A stretch of DNA of 64,000 nucleotides from Escherichia coli (lineage in GTDB: Bacteria > Pseudomonadota > Gammaproteobacteria > Enterobacterales > Enterobacteriaceae). Shown here piece by piece: positions 6,920-57,291 of this stretch; position 1 is the stretch's first letter, and each line of letters begins with the position of its first letter. A model generated the notes under the pieces. The model was not told the DNA's origin and did no database searches. It worked only from the letters and a program-made list of their open reading frames with translations. Location of the stretch: assembly GCF_024502345.1 (NCBI RefSeq), contig NZ_JALDNN010000001.1, one strand, 5' to 3'. The translations under genes and the position numbers were made by a program.

Positions 6920-7246
6920 TTATTTGTTATTACTGCGAATTTCCTGCCAAACTTTATCACAATCGGCTTTCACCGCCTGATCATTTCCGGTTTGCGTTGC
7001 ACGCAGACACTGCTGATAATCCAGTACGCGGACACTTTCCTGGTCGGCAAAATGCTGATGTTGTTTCTCTTTCTTCAGCACGTTTAACACGCTCTGGCAG
7101 GCTTCAATTTTTTCTGGCGAACCTTGTGCGGTGTTGATACAGGCGCTGTATGCCTCTTTCAGACGACTGTCTTCCTGTGGCGCGGTTGATTGCGCACAAG
7201 CTACCAGCCCCGATGCCATTATGGCGATGAGAATCAGTTTTTTCAT
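6920..7246 (-). CDS. chiQ: Lipoprotein ChiQ (YbfN)
   Basis: 108 aa; signal peptide with lipobox LVAC. Confidence 0.85.
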   Translation of the reverse strand: MKKLILIAIMASGLVACAQSTAPQEDSRLKEAYSACINTAQGSPEKIEACQSVLNVLKKEKQHQHFADQESVRVLDYQQCLRATQTGNDQAVKADCDKVWQEIRSNNK

Positions 7247-7295: not shown

Positions 7296-8702
7296 TCAGA
7301 AGATGGTGAATGGTGCGATTACCATAAATTTCACGTCACGCTCATCCTGGAAGATGTTACCGTAACCGCCGCCCCAGCTTGGGATGTCGGAGTGGTTGTC
7401 GTATTCGGTGAAGTGCAGTTTGAACATCGTGCCTTTGGCGCGACCGTCCTGAATGGTGTAGACCGCATCCAGGCTGTAGGCAGACTCTTCAATAGTCCGG
7501 TTTTTGTCGTAGTACGCATCCGGATTGCTCTGCCAGGTCGCAGGTTTAGCATCCCATGCGTAAACGTAGGAAGCGCCGATGGCGAAGCCTGGAAGATTCC
7601 AGTTTTTCAGGTCATACATCGCACCGAAGAAGACCGCTTTTTCGCCGTTAGCGTTGAAGTCGGAACGGTTATCCCACCAGATATCCAGGCGGCCGTTGGA
7701 GGAAGCGTAGGTTGGAGTCATACGTTGCAGGAAGTATCCCTGCTGACCGTCAGCCTTAACCCAGGTGCCTTCGAGGCGCAAATCCACTACGTCAGCCGCC
7801 CGGTAACCAAAGGTCAACGCTTGCAGCCAGGCGGTGCCGTCATAAAGGTCGTTGACGCTGCGATCGTCAACTTTATCGCGCGTACCATAGAACTGGTAGC
7901 TGGTGGTTAACGGGCTACCGGCGATATCAAATTTGTAGCTGGCTTTGGCAAAATATTGATCGATATACCCTTCCGCCTGACCAAATGCCGCTTCCAGTAC
8001 GAAGTTATTTTTGAAGTCGTATTTCGCCCCAAGGGAGTGCAGATAATCAACTTTGGTGGTTTTATCGTTCTGATAAAACTCATCCATTTCCAGATGCCAC
8101 GGCGCTTTGTATTCGTTGGTCCACATGTAGGAGAAACTCAACGCACCAGCATCGCCGTAATCAAAATTCGCCCCGGCTTCCGCCCCCTGATAAGTACCTG
8201 GCATAAAGCTCCAGTGCGGCGCTAACAGCGTTTGACCAGTTGGCTGAATGTAACCTGCCCTCGCCCAAACCGGACCGTATTTAAATTTGGCCGCAGCTTT
8301 ATACAGGCTTATACCGCTTTTGTCGCCGGACCAGTCTTCGTCATAGGCTTTATTACTTTTTGAAAACGCGATTTCGTTCGGGTGGGAGCTGTCGCCGTTT
8401 TCCGCCATTTCAATCGCCGTAAACGCAGCAATATCAAGGCCGAACATATCAGCAGCATAACCGGACTGAAAATCGAGGTTGGCATTCCAGGTGGAGTGAG
8501 AAAGGTTGGTTTTGTATTTGTCGCCGTCGGTAACATCTTTACGGTCGCGTTCACGCTGCCAGTAATATATACCGCCGGTTAAGGTTGAATCGTCGATGAA
8601 TCCTTCGGCGCGAGCCTCCGGCATTGCCATAAAGCCCGACATTGCTGTAACACCGGCGATAGCCAGCGCCAGCGTACTACGTTTGCCACTAAACGTACGC
8701 AT
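7296..8702 (-). CDS. chiP: Chitoporin ChiP (YbfM), OprD-family outer-membrane porin
   Basis: 468 aa; N-terminal signal peptide; C-terminal aromatic residue (...PFTIF) typical of beta-barrels. Confidence 0.9.
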
Positions 8703-9103
8703 GGGTTAATCCTCTTTGACGTATAAATTGCTGCACCAAAGGTGAACAGCGAAAAAATAAAAATTAAAAAAGTAGCGTTGAGAAAAGTCTCGCTGACTAC
8801 AGGAACAGACTATTTTTCGCGGCGCGAATTATCAATCTCTTTCTGTAACCAGAATGTAAGAACATGAGCAACCGCACATATTTTGATGATTTTTGTTACA
8901 AGGCTTAAGTTTGCGGTTGAAAGGCTTGCAGAAGAATAAAAGCGTGAATTTCCAGCAAGATGAAAGCGGTTACATTTTATTTAATTATGTTTTGTTATTT
9001 TAAATTTATTTTATGGATAAATTGCGAAGCGGAATTAATTCGTGAAGAAAAGCAGAAAAAAACGCCGCAGACCGCGGCGTTTAGGATTGTTTGCATGTTT
9101 CTT

Positions 9104-9267
9104 GCCGGATGCGGCGTGAACGCCTTATCCGGCCTACAAAAGCACGCAAACTCAATATATTGCAGAGATCATGTAGGCCTGATAAGCGTAGCGCATCAGG
9201 CAATTTAGCGTTTGAAACTGTTTGTCTGTTCCTTGCCGGATGCGACGTAAACGCCCCATCCGGCATA
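9104..9267. repeat. BIME cluster: Y REP, IHF-like spacer, inverted Z REP, plus a third REP unit
   Basis: gccggatgcggcgtgaacgccttatccggcctac ... taggcctgataagcgtagcgcatcaggc ... gccggatgcgacgtaaacgccccatccggcat. Confidence 0.85.
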
Positions 9268-9280
9268 GCGAAACGTAAAA

Positions 9281-10945
9281 TTACTCGCCAACTTTCGCCC
9301 AGGTATCACGCAGCCCAACGGTGCGGTTAAATACCGGTTTTTCGGCAGTGGAATGGCGGCTGTCGAGGCAGAAGTAACCTTCACGCTCAAACTGGAATGC
9401 TTTACCCGCTACCGCATCTTTCAGCGACGGTTCAGCAAAGCCCTGTTTGATCACCAGCGATTCCGGGTTAATCACCGACAGGAAATCATCCGCAGCACCT
9501 GGGTTCGGCACGCTGAACAGACGGTCATACAAACGGATTTCAACCGGCAGCGCATGTGCCGCGCTCACCCAGTGAATAACACCTTTGACTTTACGACCAT
9601 CTGCCGGATCTTTGCTTAAGGTATCGGCGTCATAAGTACAGAAGATGGTGGTGATATTACCTTCGACATCTTTCTCGACGCGTTCTGCCTTAATCACATA
9701 AGCATTACGCAGACGCACTTCTTTACCGAGCACCAGACGTTTGTACTGCTTGTTAGCTTCTTCGCGGAAATCGGCGCGATCGATCCAAATCTCACCGCTA
9801 AACGGCACCTGACGGCTGCCCATTTCCGGTTTGTTCGGATGGTTCGGCATGGTAACCATTTCGCCTTCGCCCTGATAGTTTTCGATAACCAGTTTCACCG
9901 GATCGATAACCGCCATTGCGCGCGGCGCATTTTCGTTGAGATCTTCACGGATGCAGGATTCCAGCGACGCCATCTCAATGGTGTTGTCCTGCTTGGTCAC
10001 GCCGATGCGTTTGCAGAACTCACGAATAGAAGCCGCAGTGTAACCACGACGACGCAGACCGGAAATGGTCGGCATACGCGGGTCATCCCAGCCTTCAACG
10101 TGCTTATCGGTCACCAGCAGGTTCAGCTTACGCTTGGACATCACAGTGTATTCCAGATTCAGGCGCGAGAATTCGTACTGGCGCGGGTGAACAGGAATGG
10201 TGATGTTGTCCAGTACCCAGTCGTACAGACGACGGTTATCCTGGAACTCAAGCGTACACAGAGAGTGCGTAATACCTTCCAGAGCATCGCTGATGCAGTG
10301 GGTGAAGTCGTACATCGGGTAGATGCACCACTTGTTGCCAGTCTGGTGGTGTTCAGCAAATTTAATGCGGTACAGCACCGGATCGCGCATCACGATAAAC
10401 GGTGAAGCCATGTCGATTTTCGCACGCAGGCAGGCTTTACCTTCTTCAAAACCGCCGGTACGCATTTTCTCGAACAGCGCCAGGTTCTCTTCAACGCTAC
10501 GGTCGCGGTACGGGCTGTTTTTACCAGGCTGCGTCAGGGTGCCGCGGTATTCGCGGATCTGTTCCGGCGTCAGTTCATCAACGTACGCCAGGCCTTTATT
10601 GATCAGTTCGATCGCATAGGCGTGGAGCTGATCAAAATAATCGGAGGAGTAACGGACGTTACCAGACCAGTGAAAACCTAACCACTCTACGTCGTTTTTG
10701 ATCGACTCAACATACTCGATATCTTCTTTTACCGGGTTAGTGTCGTCGAAACGCAGGTTGCACTGGCCTTTATAGTCCTGGGCGATCCCGAAGTTCAGGC
10801 AGATAGATTTCGCATGGCCAATATGCAGATAGCCATTCGGCTCCGGCGGAAAACGGGTGTGTACTGTGGTGTGCTTACCACTGGCCAGATCTTCATCGAT
10901 GATCTGACGGATAAAGTTAGTCGGGCGGGCTTTTGCCTCACTCAT
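9281..10945 (-). CDS. glnS: Glutaminyl-tRNA synthetase
   Basis: 554 aa; HIGH motif (HIGHAKS) and VMSKR (KMSKS-type) motif. Confidence 0.97.
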
Positions 10946-11147: not shown

Positions 11148-13094
11148 TTACTTTTTGATTTCATACAGCGGTGTTTGACCCGCCACAACATGGCCCTGAG
11201 CTTTAATGATCAAGCCACTGAAATCGTCGATATTGCTGCAAACCACCGGGCTAATCATCGAGCGGGCGTTAGCGTTCAGGTAATCCAGATCCATTTCCAG
11301 AATCGGTTGCCCTGCGCTTACCTGCGCACCCTCTTCCACCAGACGTTTAAAGCCTTTACCTTCCAGCGCTACGGTGTCGATACCCATATGGACGACGATC
11401 TCCGCGCCTTTTTCGGTTTCCAGGCAGAACGCGTGGTTGGTGTTGAAGATTTTCACGATTGTCCCTGCGGCTGGTGATACGACGATTTTATCTGTCGGTT
11501 TCACCGCCACACCGTCACCCACCGCTTTGCTGGCGAATGCTTCGTCAGGAACCTGATCCAGTGCCACGACATCACCGGTAATCGGCGATACCAGCTCCGC
11601 GATAGATACCGCGTTTGGTACAGCCTGCGGTTTTGCTACAGGCGCGGCAGTTGCCGGAGTTGCTTCAGCTGACGCAGCGGCTACCGGACCACGGGCAACG
11701 ACTTTCTTCATCGCATCGCCGATGGATTCTGCTTTCGCGCCAACAATCACCTGAATAGTCTGTTTGTTCAGTTTCACTACACCAGAAGCACCCAGACGTT
11801 TACACATCGTATCGTTGACGCGGGCAGAGTCAGCCACGGTCAGGCGCAGACGGGTGATACAGGCGTCAATTGCTTTCAGGTTGTCAGTGCCGCCAACCGC
11901 AGCAATATAGTTGGTCGCCAGTTGATTGAGGCCTTCTTCAGTGTTGCTGTTGGCTTCTTCAGTAACGATCTCGTCTTCTTTATCTTCACGACCCGGCGTT
12001 TTCAGGTTGAACATGCGGATAACCAAACTGAACACCACGAAGTAGATAGCGAAGAAGACAACACCCATAACCAGCAGCATCCAGACGTTCTGGCTGGCGG
12101 CCGGCAGGTTATACATCAACGCGTAGTCGATAGCCCCCGCAGAGAAAGAGAAGCCAGCATGGATACCCAGCAGTGTTGCCACAAACAGGCTGATACCGGT
12201 CAGCAGTGCGTGCAGGAGGTACAGCAGCGGTGCAAGGAACATGAACAGGAATTCCAGCGGCTCAGTCACACCGGTCAGGAACGCAGTAACAGCAACAGAA
12301 AGCAGCATCCCGCCAACCATCGGACGACGCTCTTTCGGTGCTGCGAAGTACATCGCCAGCGCCGCACCCGGCAGACCGAACATCATAATCGGGAAGAAGC
12401 CGGACATGAACATCCCCGCGGTGCCGTCACCGGCATAGAAGCGGTTGATATCACCGTGGAAAACCGTACCCGCCGCGTTGGTGAATTCACCAATCTGGAA
12501 CCAGGCGATGGTGTTCAGCACCTGATGCAGACCGGTTGGGATCAGCAGACGGTTGATGAAACCAAAGATACCGGAACCCAGCGCGCCCGCAGAAACGATC
12601 CACTCGCCTCCTGCATGGATAGCGTGCTGTACCGGCGGCCAGACGTAACCAAAAATGGCCGCCAGCACCAGGCAGAAGAAGCCGGTGGCAATCGGCACAA
12701 AGCGTTTGCCGCCGAAGAAACTCAGGAAGTCCGGCAGTTTAATATCGGACCAACGGTTATAGGCTGCGCCACCAACCAGACCGGTAATGATACCCGCCAG
12801 TACACCCATGTTAATTTCTGGGTTGATGGTCACCATCGCTTTGGTTAACACAAAGTAACCTACCGCACCCGCCAGCGCCGCCGCACCTGCGCTGTCTTTC
12901 GACCAGCTGGATGCCACACCGATGGCGAAGATTAATGCGAGGTTATCAAAAATCGCACCGCCCGCCTGGGCAATAAACGCAACGTTAAGTAAATCTGGCT
13001 GACCGAATCGCAGCAACAGTGCCGCCACCGGCAGCACCGCGATAGGGAGCTGTAACGCCCTACCGAGTCGCTGGAAAAAACCTAAAATATTCAT
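11148..13094 (-). CDS. nagE: PTS N-acetylglucosamine-specific EIICBA component
   Basis: 648 aa; polytopic N-terminal EIIC domain, C-terminal EIIB/EIIA domains. Confidence 0.95.
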   Translation of the reverse strand: MNILGFFQRLGRALQLPIAVLPVAALLLRFGQPDLLNVAFIAQAGGAIFDNLALIFAIGVASSWSKDSAGAAALAGAVGYFVLTKAMVTINPEINMGVLAGIITGLVGGAAYNRWSDIKLPDFLSFFGGKRFVPIATGFFCLVLAAIFGYVWPPVQHAIHAGGEWIVSAGALGSGIFGFINRLLIPTGLHQVLNTIAWFQIGEFTNAAGTVFHGDINRFYAGDGTAGMFMSGFFPIMMFGLPGAALAMYFAAPKERRPMVGGMLLSVAVTAFLTGVTEPLEFLFMFLAPLLYLLHALLTGISLFVATLLGIHAGFSFSAGAIDYALMYNLPAASQNVWMLLVMGVVFFAIYFVVFSLVIRMFNLKTPGREDKEDEIVTEEANSNTEEGLNQLATNYIAAVGGTDNLKAIDACITRLRLTVADSARVNDTMCKRLGASGVVKLNKQTIQVIVGAKAESIGDAMKKVVARGPVAAASAEATPATAAPVAKPQAVPNAVSIAELVSPITGDVVALDQVPDEAFASKAVGDGVAVKPTDKIVVSPAAGTIVKIFNTNHAFCLETEKGAEIVVHMGIDTVALEGKGFKRLVEEGAQVSAGQPILEMDLDYLNANARSMISPVVCSNIDDFSGLIIKAQGHVVAGQTPLYEIKK

Positions 13095-13247
13095 CTTATT
13101 CCCCCTACGAGAACCCTATTTGGCTCGTTTAAAGCCGTATTTTTATTTTGCTGCAAATTGTACTGCCGATGTTCTGTAATCAGATTGTTAGATCATCTGC
13201 TACAGAGTGTGTGAAAATTTAATTCGTATCGCAAATTAAACGCGTGT

Positions 13248-13271: not shown

Positions 13272-13426
13272 ATCGTTATCATCACTCCCTTTTACTGGCT
13301 AAAGCAGAAAACTTATTTTATCATTCAAAAAATCAGGTCGGATTGACGCCTGTCTGCGCAAATCCAGGTTACGCTTAAAGATGCCTAATCCGCCAACGGC
13401 TTACATTTTACTTATTGAGGTGAATA

Positions 13427-17464: not shown

Positions 17465-17515
17465 ATACCACCCACGTCTGCGGACGTGGTTGGCTCTGAT
17501 GACAAACGCCAAACT

Positions 17516-17614
17516 GCCTGATGCGCTACGCTTATCAGGCCTACGCAGCTCCTGCAATATATTGAATTTTCATGCTTTTGTAGGCCGGATAAGGCGTTCA
17601 CGCCGCATCCGGCA
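17516..17614. repeat. REP/BIME element (Z REP, IHF-like spacer, inverted Y REP)
   Basis: Reverse-complement copy of the element at 9104-9201. Confidence 0.85.
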
Positions 17615-55285: not shown

Positions 55286-56912
55286 TAGGTTTCACTTTCG
55301 GAATATAGATTGAAAATAAGGTACCGCAGGGATCATTATCTTCGAGAGTGATAACACCACCGCAGCGCGTTACATAGCTGGCAATCAAGTACAACCCAAT
55401 GCCATGTTCACCGGGCTCGTCAGCACGCGTACTGACCCCCTGCTCAAATATTTTGTCTCGTAGAGACTCTGGAACGCCGCAGCCCTGATCGGCGACTTCA
55501 ATCACCACATCATCGCCTTCATCGCTGAGGAATAATTCAACGATCTTGTTTCCTTCATCGCTACGCAGGCTGGCTTCGAAGGCGTTATCAAGTAAATTTC
55601 CCACAATGGCGGCAAACTCGGTGCTATCCAGTCCTGGCGGCAGTTGCGAAAGCTGGCTACCGGGGACGATGATCATTTTTAGCCCCAGTTCGCGGGCGCG
55701 CTGAACTTTACCAAAAAGCAGCCCCGCCACCTGGCGATCGGCAAACGCCTCGCGCAGGCTGTCAATAAGCTGTTGCTGGGCCTGAGACTCCCCCTGCACC
55801 ATCGCCAGCACGCGATCATACTCTTTCATCTGCAACAGACCATTGAGCGTCGACATCCAATTGAGATGCTCGTGTCGCAATGTACGAAGGCTCTCGACGT
55901 ATTGTTTTATTTGCGTCAGTTGCGCATTGAGGGTGGAAATTTCGTCTTTACTACGAAAGCTGATAATGGCCCCCAGCAAATCATCACCTGAACGAATAGC
56001 TTCCCGATTGGCAATAACGCTCAGACCGTTAAAGTTAGCCACCACATCCTGACGTTTTTCATCAATCTGTTCGGTAAAGAAATCGGCGGGCCTGACCACT
56101 TCAGCAATGGGTTTACCCAACCATTGCCGTCCGGGGGAACTCAGCCCCAGCATCTTTCTTGCGTTACGATTGATGGCGGTAATGTAACCGTGCGGATCCA
56201 CCGCAATCAGCCCTTCATAAACCGAACTAAACAGCGCCTCTTGCTGACGGACCACGCGTGCGATTTGCTTTGGCTCCATGCCCATCATCTGCCGACGGAT
56301 ATGCGCGGCCAGGAACCACGACAGCAACATCAGAATCCCTAACAGCACGACAAACACACCTGCCATCGGTAATAAAAACTCAGCCCGCCAGCTATCGATT
56401 TTACTCACCAGGTAGCCAATCGACACCACGCCGATGACTTTTCCATCGTCATCAAAGATTGGCGTTTTGGCGCGCATCGCCATACCCATTGACCCTTTCC
56501 CGGTAATGAAGTAGCTCTCCCCTTTCTCCAGCGCGCCCTGTTTGGTGAACTGCATAGGATAACCAATTTTCTCCGGATTAGGATGGTAAAGGCGGATCGA
56601 GTGCCGGTCGCCAATCACCACATAATCAAAATCGGTATCTCTTTGTAATTTGTTAGCGATGGTCGCCAGCCGTTTGTAGTCACGCGTTTTTACTGCGCTG
56701 ATGATACTGTCATTGGAGGCAATAATTTTCGCCTGATTCATTGCCATGTCGCGTACATGAAGCGTTAAATAGTCCTCAAAACTGGCCGTAAAATATTGCG
56801 CCAGGGCTGCAATGACAAATATTGAGAACACCAGAATCAGCAAAAAGATACGCAGCGGAAATGCCAGTCTTTGGAAAAATGCAAACTGTTTATTCTCGTT
56901 AAGCTGCAACAT
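55254..56912 (-). CDS. dpiB: Sensor histidine kinase DpiB (CitA)
   Basis: 552 aa from internal Met (MLQLNENKQFAFF...); periplasmic PAS-like sensor, H-box, HATPase; 3' end overlaps dpiA by 32 nt. Confidence 0.93.
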   Translation of the reverse strand: MLQLNENKQFAFFQRLAFPLRIFLLILVFSIFVIAALAQYFTASFEDYLTLHVRDMAMNQAKIIASNDSIISAVKTRDYKRLATIANKLQRDTDFDYVVIGDRHSIRLYHPNPEKIGYPMQFTKQGALEKGESYFITGKGSMGMAMRAKTPIFDDDGKVIGVVSIGYLVSKIDSWRAEFLLPMAGVFVVLLGILMLLSWFLAAHIRRQMMGMEPKQIARVVRQQEALFSSVYEGLIAVDPHGYITAINRNARKMLGLSSPGRQWLGKPIAEVVRPADFFTEQIDEKRQDVVANFNGLSVIANREAIRSGDDLLGAIISFRSKDEISTLNAQLTQIKQYVESLRTLRHEHLNWMSTLNGLLQMKEYDRVLAMVQGESQAQQQLIDSLREAFADRQVAGLLFGKVQRARELGLKMIIVPGSQLSQLPPGLDSTEFAAIVGNLLDNAFEASLRSDEGNKIVELFLSDEGDDVVIEVADQGCGVPESLRDKIFEQGVSTRADEPGEHGIGLYLIASYVTRCGGVITLEDNDPCGTLFSIYIPKVKPNDSSINPIDR

Positions 56913-57291
56913 TGTTTTCCTTGCGGGTTGTCCCGAGCCTCTTTGACGGATGTAATTAAAATGTTGAATCAAAATACATAGATATTAATTATAATCGTGG
57001 CAAATTTTATTCATTAAATCAATTAAATCACTTAAACCTGCGGGTCATTTCGTAATTACATTAATTAAAAAACTTAAAACCATTAAATAAATAAAAAACC
57101 ACTAACTCTATGTGAAATAAATCAAAATTTCACGCCGAAATACTCCTTAGGATGTATAGCGAAAGGAGAAAAAGATATACCTCAATCACCCCCCTTTCTC
57201 CCAAGTGAAAATAAAAGGTTATCAGTTTGCAACATTGAACAACATTCGTTGCAAATCGATAACAACATGCACCTTCAGGATACTATTTATT

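Follow-up and report, generated by a model that had tools for sequence, protein, structure and literature searches.

The glnS–chiP locus

The DNA analysed here (the window, 64,000 nt) is E. coli DNA and is inverted relative to MG1655. According to the ORF list, nagE (13094..11148), glnS (10945..9281), chiP (8702..7296) and chiQ (7246..6920) all lie on the minus strand, unlike fur, which is on the plus strand. The glnS coding sequence, which specifies glutamine--tRNA ligase, is annotated as such both in MG1655 and in the E. coli genomes that match; the annotation in matching E. coli genomes likewise identifies chiP, the gene of the chitoporin ChiP, and the product of the ORF is 99–100% identical to Escherichia ChiP. 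Since glnS and chiP are both encoded on the minus strand, they are arranged in tandem, and the ‘convergent terminator’ that an earlier note had placed between them has to be abandoned.

When complete E. coli genomes were searched with a 901-nt query over the region, 5,418 of the 5,426 gave a match covering at least 80% of the query, and the genome features underlying the matches are annotated as glnS and chiP. The MG1655 record gives the order glnS, ncRNA chiZ, chiP, chiQ, and the window shows the matching order. Over the stretch between the glnS and chiP coding regions the window and MG1655 are ∼ 99% identical in a pairwise alignment. Of 5,551 E. coli records matched, only 20 reach 99% identity or more to the window in the glnS–chiP intergenic region, which places the window in a less common lineage. 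A comparison set of 80 chiP loci, taken from different species of enterobacteria, was fetched. At least 70 of these loci have glnS upstream of chiP on the same strand, and 58 complete glnS–chiP intergenic regions were available for intergenic comparisons. The length of this region is 447, 510 or 578 nt among Escherichia lineages.

The sequence directly upstream of chiP is indeed AT-rich, as had been noted before (8703–8950; 37.5% G+C, compared with 50.9% for the whole window). It is separated from the terminator described below by an even more AT-rich spacer (8951..9047, 26.8% G+C; no strand assigned) that is poorly conserved, both its sequence and its length varying across genera in the multi-species alignment. 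The sole hit of a consensus promoter scan fell inside this spacer and was at chance level.

Termination of glnS and the REP elements

The minus strand carries an intrinsic (Rho-independent) terminator for glnS at 9050..9082, supported by a terminator scan, its energy and its conservation. The hairpin described in the earlier note is present (plus-strand acgccgc at 9062–9068 and gcggcgt at 9074–9080), as is the T-run on the minus strand, which consists of seven T at 9062..9056 followed by CTGCTT. The full stem is AAACGCCGC/GCGGCGTTT (9060–9068/9074–9082); read along the minus strand, its arms occupy 9082..9074 and 9068..9060, the 5-nt loop 9073..9069 and the U-tract 9062..9056. The element thus has the make-up of an intrinsic terminator, with a stem of 9–10 bp containing six G–C pairs, a loop of 3–5 nt and a tract of seven U, and the predicted energy of the stem-loop is −14.7 kcal/mol. 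The number of terminator-like patterns in the 800-bp stretch is not unusual (three, compared with 1.4 expected). We nevertheless regard the terminator as real and not as a chance match, because 57 of the 58 complete intergenic regions, each from a different species, have the ACGCCGC/GCGGCGT stem and the T-run after glnS, with a variable loop. Two loci carry compensatory variants of the stem (GCGCCGC/GCGGCGC in L056, ACACCGC/GCGGTGT in L069), and a third, L060, has an unrelated hairpin with a T-run at the equivalent place after glnS.

An inverted-repeat search located three imperfect palindromes of the REP type (9104–9137, 9173–9201 and 9235–9264) downstream of the glnS stop codon (9283..9281) and ahead of the hairpin, and we assign the interval 9083..9280 on the minus strand to a glnS 3′ UTR with three REP elements on the basis of these repeats and their copy number. 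The palindromes are ∼ 30–35 nt long, with cores GCCGGATG...CATCCGGC and GCCTGATG...CATCAGGC. Like known REP/BIME elements they alternate in orientation, are extragenic and multi-copy, and are flanked by a stop codon on one side and a terminator on the other. No difference from this family was noted, and the copy number at the glnS site varies between Escherichia lineages. Indeed, the 901-nt query, which contains the REPs, hit E. coli genomes at a median of 39 places each. A search of 8600–9400 against Rfam gave nothing above the gathering threshold; the matches below it were REP-like and, in the REP region, were to the REP-derived families naRNA4 and ES036. Elsewhere in the window, composite (BIME-like) copies occur at 1677–1775 and 17503–17614 and are 87–91% identical over 100–113 nt to the REP cluster in the glnS 3′ UTR. 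Other genera have a shorter insert or none at all: in most genera the distance from the glnS stop codon to the terminator stem is 14–40 nt, compared with 197 nt in the window, 127 nt in another E. coli and 67 nt in E. whittamii. As it is the same terminator that follows the stop codon so closely in most genera, the REPs are insertions between glnS and a terminator that was already there.

An experimental counterpart is found in MG1655, where a SMRT-Cappable-seq study describes a transcript spanning 706062–707981, in which b0680 (glnS) is the only gene completely contained. The 707981 end is typed as ‘terminator’ in that study, with a known terminator centred on 707966. By our computation the orthologous T-run ends at 707980, and the published glnS 3′ end thus lies 1 nt past it. 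In M9 medium 84 reads end at this terminator and four pass it; in a second sheet, which we take to be rich medium, 259 end and 32 pass, and the median read-through is 28–65 nt. The proposal of the earlier note that the hairpin ends glnS after a REP-containing 3′ UTR is therefore well founded, given the 3′ end of the MG1655 orthologue and its limited read-through. A glnS 3′ end at the terminator is seen in the SMRT-Cappable-seq data only: the Term-seq tables of Adams et al. for MG1655 contain no 3′ end at 7078xx–7079xx, where this terminator lies. The K-12 and window terminators are closely alike, sharing the ACGCCGC/GCGGCGT stem, the location after three REPs and upstream of chiP, and the U-tract. 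They differ in the loop (GGUCU in the window, GUUCA in K-12), in the U-tract, which is one U longer in the window, and at the base of the stem, where the window has one A–U pair fewer (−14.7 compared with −16.5 kcal/mol for K-12). In the window the 3′ end of the glnS RNA is expected near 9056–9055. We propose that glnS transcription would pass the stop codon, cross ∼ 200 nt of REPs and end at the hairpin 9082..9060 with its U-tract, and that the terminator would in this way insulate chiP from glnS transcription.

Two other explanations of the hairpin were considered. Its stem is a perfect palindrome that would also form in a plus-strand transcript, and the pattern scan reports the hairpin on both strands; this could be taken to indicate a bidirectional terminator common to convergent transcription units. 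We consider such a role scarcely credible, and the orientation of the genes refutes it: the minus strand carries glnS as well as chiP, and no plus-strand gene runs into the hairpin. Moreover, on the plus strand the tail that follows the hairpin is AGGATTGTTT, which offers no usable T-tract, and the A-run that gives rise to the minus-strand U-tract is located upstream of the hairpin. With this tail, the terminator works in one direction only. The second explanation is that the 3′ ends of glnS are set by exonuclease blocks at the REPs or by Rho, or that transcription reads through into chiP, and that the hairpin serves mostly as an upstream element of chiP, for example as a distal NagC site. REP elements stabilise upstream mRNA, the Term-seq tables are without a 3′ end at the hairpin, and a NagC-like box overlaps the U-tract (see below), all of which would fit. 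However, the full-length MG1655 reads end at 707981, few of them pass it and those that do extend by a median of only 28–65 nt; the hairpin is found 14–40 nt after the glnS stop codon in most genera, which have no REPs there; and the glnS operon is listed as monocistronic. We therefore judge this explanation to be very unlikely, although slightly less so than the bidirectional one, and retain the reading of the hairpin as the intrinsic terminator of glnS. A glnS–chiP operon was also considered and is ruled out by the SMRT-Cappable-seq 3′ end of glnS together with the monocistronic listing.

The chiP promoter and its upstream region

The transcription start of chiP is located at 8800 of the window. 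This follows from the MG1655 annotation of chiZ (b4808, 708236–708333), which aligns to window positions 8800..8703 with no mismatch, and from the published chiP RNA constructs and cloning primers, which start with GUAGUCAGCG, corresponding to 8800. Relative to this start site, the core promoter on the minus strand (8807..8835) can be read directly from the sequence as a −35 element TTGATA (8835..8830) and a −10 element TAGTCT (8812..8807), separated by a 17-nt spacer. Every species in the alignment retains it. That the consensus scan did not pick it up is due to the weak −10 element, which matches the consensus at three of six positions. The earlier note had treated the whole of 8703–8950 as the leader of chiP. 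This holds for 8703–8800; the remainder, 8801–8950, is promoter and upstream DNA.

The promoter overlaps the NagC operator known as ‘ybfM proximal’ (GATAATTCGCGCCGCGAAAAATA, 8811..8833 on the minus strand), which we identified from its match to K-12, its PSSM score and its conservation. The known K-12 operator, as given in the FITBAR paper, is GATAATTCGCGTCGCGAAAAATA; 22 of its 23 bases are identical in the window, and the TT-N9-AA frame and the location in the −35/−10 spacer are alike. The site shows the AT-rich arms and the 23-bp TT-N9-AA arrangement of a NagC operator at 8833..8811. The single difference is the central base (8822), which is C in the window and T in MG1655, other Escherichia and almost all genera aligned. 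This position also varies among known NagC operators, and we expect, judging from the sequence, that the exchange would bring no functional change. The central base is A in Enterobacter sp. ENT03. A PSSM built from nine other listed operators, with the chiP site left out, assigned the chiP operator a score of 21.0, rank 2 of 63,977 positions in the window, compared with 14.1 for the best unrelated site in the 64 kb. The top-scoring site in the window is the nagE operator (13218–13240). Among the 80 fetched loci the operator is present in 79, the remaining locus being without upstream sequence, and it has the top PSSM score in all 58 intergenic regions scanned. The block of promoter and operator is conserved across ∼ 20 genera.

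The operator (8833..8811) overlaps the −35 element, the spacer and the −10 element and is thus placed to interfere with the chiP promoter. The action of NagC, which the earlier note had located in the leader, is accordingly assigned to the promoter. Reviews and a 2026 preprint describe chiP as repressed by NagC. Bound to a 23-bp operator that fills the −35/−10 spacer, NagC should block RNA polymerase. NagC repression is relieved by GlcNAc-6-P, which would be predicted to relieve it at the chiP promoter as well. The classical pair of NagC operators at the divergent nagE–nagB promoters also lies in the window (13218–13240 and 13312–13334); both are identical to the sequences TTTAATTTGCGATACGAATTAAA and CTTATTTTATCATTCAAAAAATC in Table 1 of the FITBAR paper.

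Further conserved boxes are found upstream. Two candidate distal NagC-like boxes were located on the minus strand at 9016..9056 by PSSM and alignment: one at 9056..9034 (TCTGCTTTTCTTCACGAATTAAT, score 6.8), which overlaps the U-tract of the terminator, and one at 9038..9016 (TTAATTCCGCTTCGCAATTTATC, score 9.9). Directly after the terminator an aligned block, ..TTCGCGAtGCGAATTAAT.., is kept in most genera, with PSSM scores of 15–22.8; the loci with a NagC-like box beside the terminator include L007, L037, L046 and L067. The candidate boxes are ∼ 200–235 bp from the proximal operator and are weak or degenerate in E. coli. Closer to the promoter, a candidate CRP site (ATATGTGCGGTTGCTCATGTTC, 8860..8881, minus strand) is centred at −70.5 and has the core TGTGC-N6-TCATG at 8878..8863. 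The corresponding block TATGTGC..N6..TCAT is conserved across ∼ 20 genera in the multi-species alignment, and we take it to match the CRP consensus in a class I position. A third box, TGTAACAAA, is located near −95 (8900..8892, minus strand) and is likewise kept across ∼ 20 genera. In the accessible literature we found no account of distal NagC-like, CRP-like or TGTAACAAA boxes at chiP, and the search for CRP was swamped by matches to ‘ChIP’. The candidate distal NagC and CRP boxes are thus put forward here as new, though some or all of them may already have been published. It seems unlikely that the upstream region of chiP holds regulatory sites beyond the well-known NagC operator. Were the distal NagC-type box genuine, its spacing of ∼ 200–235 bp would allow a repression loop, and if the candidate boxes were functional, there would be a physical overlap between the end of glnS and the beginning of chiP control.

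The chiP leader, ChiZ and ChiX

With transcription starting at 8800, the chiP 5′ UTR comprises 98 nt (8800..8703). This 5′ UTR is itself annotated as a ChiX-sponging sRNA, ChiZ, which the earlier note did not mention; we place ChiZ at 8702..8800 on the minus strand from the MG1655 annotation, sequence identity and Term-seq. Adams et al. report that a 5′ fragment of ∼ 90 nt, ChiZ, accumulates when chiX is deleted, and that ChiZ, which is Hfq-dependent and whose 3′ end depends on Rho, acts as a sponge for ChiX and lowers it (PMC7815308; correction PMC8043740). Their Term-seq data place the 3′ end of ChiZ at the A of the AUG (708334; 8702 of the window). The leader shares with the K-12 chiP (ybfM) 5′ UTR/ChiZ the identity over 98 nt, the start context, a 12-nt complement to ChiX and the position before chiP. 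No difference is detectable in the RNA; elsewhere the intergenic region differs by ∼ 1%.

The earlier note had stated that ChiX pairs in the chiP leader. Using the ChiX (MicM/SroB/RybC) sequence of MG1655 (507204–507287), we found a pairing site, CGUCAAAGAGGA, on the minus strand at 8710..8721, where UCCUCUUUGACG of ChiX is complemented at 12 of 12 nt (8721..8710); the statement stands, and the lack of complementarity that had been named as the argument against it is not seen. The complement overlaps the Shine–Dalgarno sequence AGAGGA (8715..8710), which is followed by 7 nt (8709..8703) and the AUG (8702..8700). A duplex calculation with full-length ChiX and a 128-nt leader was not discriminating, as 10 of 500 shuffles were as good and many tiles were better. 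It is uninformative because huge interior loops are allowed, and we used the counting of exact complements and a seed-restricted duplex instead. The seed-restricted duplex at chiP has an energy of −21.0 kcal/mol, compared with a window background of −10.05 ± 2.88 kcal/mol. In 60 orthologous leaders the core GTCAAAGAGGA is near-invariant, with variable flanks, and it is conserved across ∼ 20 genera. For K-12, Adams et al. state that the chiP leader pairs with ChiX, citing compensatory mutations (PMC7815308; correction PMC8043740), and strong repression of chiP-lacZ by ChiX is described in the literature.

It could be argued that the 12-nt match is nothing but a conserved strong ribosome-binding site that carries no regulatory meaning in this strain, since half of it (6 of 12 nt) is the Shine–Dalgarno sequence AGAGGA, and duplexes of −20 kcal/mol or lower are found in 59 of 18,274 background windows (0.3%). 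We regard this as exceedingly improbable. The conservation in the 60 leaders extends 5′ of the Shine–Dalgarno sequence to GTCAA, with constant spacing to the AUG and variable flanks, and the leader is identical to that of K-12, where the compensatory mutations and the repression by ChiX have been demonstrated. In addition, a second complement to the ChiX seed is present in the window at 56949..56938, in the 5′ region of dpiB. We thus keep to the interpretation of the match as a ChiX pairing site. The dpiB complement is also perfect (CCGUCAAAGAGG, 56938–56951, minus strand, 12–13 nt, duplex −22.1 kcal/mol) and ends 26 nt upstream of the dpiB ATG (56911..56909; sensor kinase DpiB/CitA). Reportedly, Mandin and Gottesman described dpiB as a target of ChiX (RybC) in 2009.

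The predicted fold of the leader leaves the ChiX site unpaired. Its energy, −16.8 kcal/mol, is unremarkable (z = −1.3). The minimum-free-energy fold and covariation delineate, on the minus strand, hairpin 1 (nt 1–29, 8772..8800) and hairpin 2 (nt 51–71, 8730..8750), separated by a U/A-rich tract (nt 30–50, 8751..8771) that is unpaired in the fold and has a conserved T-run. A covariance model was built from 16 close relatives and 44 orthologous leaders were aligned to it. In this alignment 88.8% of the cells are paired and all 18 base pairs show compensatory changes, counts that lean towards the structure since the alignment was fitted to the structure under test. Hairpin 1 (helices 1 and 2) contributes 10 of 10 pairs and hairpin 2 (helices 3 and 4) 8 of 8, with 87–98% of cells paired in the latter. 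None of 500 shuffles reached the observed values, and slid controls were 28–65% paired. With an ordinary MAFFT alignment of the 60 leaders as input, RNAalifold found no more than five pairs. The covariation support for a two-hairpin chiP leader is put forward here as new. A UA-rich rim-binding region for Hfq has been described in the chiP mRNA, and the nt 30–50 tract (8751..8771) is likely to be this site, the coordinates being our own assignment. We propose that the 98-nt leader folds as two hairpins that flank the U-rich Hfq site and leave the Shine–Dalgarno region single-stranded. ChiX, aided by Hfq, would pair over 12 nt at this single-stranded Shine–Dalgarno region, and the pairing is predicted to block translation and to promote Rho-dependent termination inside chiP. 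Where ChiX does not pair, a 5′ fragment of ∼ 90–99 nt ending at the AUG (ChiZ) would accumulate and sponge ChiX.

Taken as a whole, 8703–9280 is very probably the standard E. coli glnS–chiP intergenic region, with the glnS terminator, a NagC-repressed promoter, a ChiX-bound leader and ChiZ. These features are real and all belong to already known systems; in calling them known the earlier note was correct, as the terminator, the NagC operator and the ChiX site all match elements described in K-12. The sequences analysed here show where the elements lie, that the leader is complementary to ChiX, that the operator matches the known one, and that there is conservation and covariation. The glnS 3′ end, the ends and sponging activity of ChiZ, the pairing of ChiX and the repression by NagC come from the cited experiments in K-12 and Salmonella, those on ChiX–chiP pairing and on NagC at chiP through secondary citations. 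At ∼ 99% identity to MG1655 across the region, we infer that the functions established in K-12 and Salmonella would also hold in the strain of the window. The region would then be a textbook case of layered control that combines insulation by a terminator, sugar-responsive repression by NagC, silencing of the mRNA by a constitutive sRNA, ChiX, and titration of ChiX by ChiZ. Beyond correct annotation the significance is small, though correct coordinates and strands avert the pursuit of a non-existent convergent arrangement or of a 250-nt leader. The comparative data are of modest value: they show conservation across the Enterobacteriaceae of terminator, operator, ChiX site and two-hairpin leader, and insertion of REPs between glnS and the terminator in Escherichia.

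Two groups of loci depart from this pattern in the leader. In L013, L020, L021, L022, L024 and L025 (Citrobacter and an uncultured ‘Raoultella’ MAG) the distance from the operator to the ATG is ∼ 120 nt longer; the leaders measure 221–227 nt, with an insertion just upstream of the conserved ChiX site. In Kosakonia and relatives (L046, L052, L057, L058, L067) the core GTCAAAGAGGA reads GTCCAGAAGGA or GTCTAGAAGGA, and in L050 it reads GTCAATGAGGA. Set beside the cognate chiX genes, these changed cores would provide a natural test of the co-evolution of ChiX and chiP.
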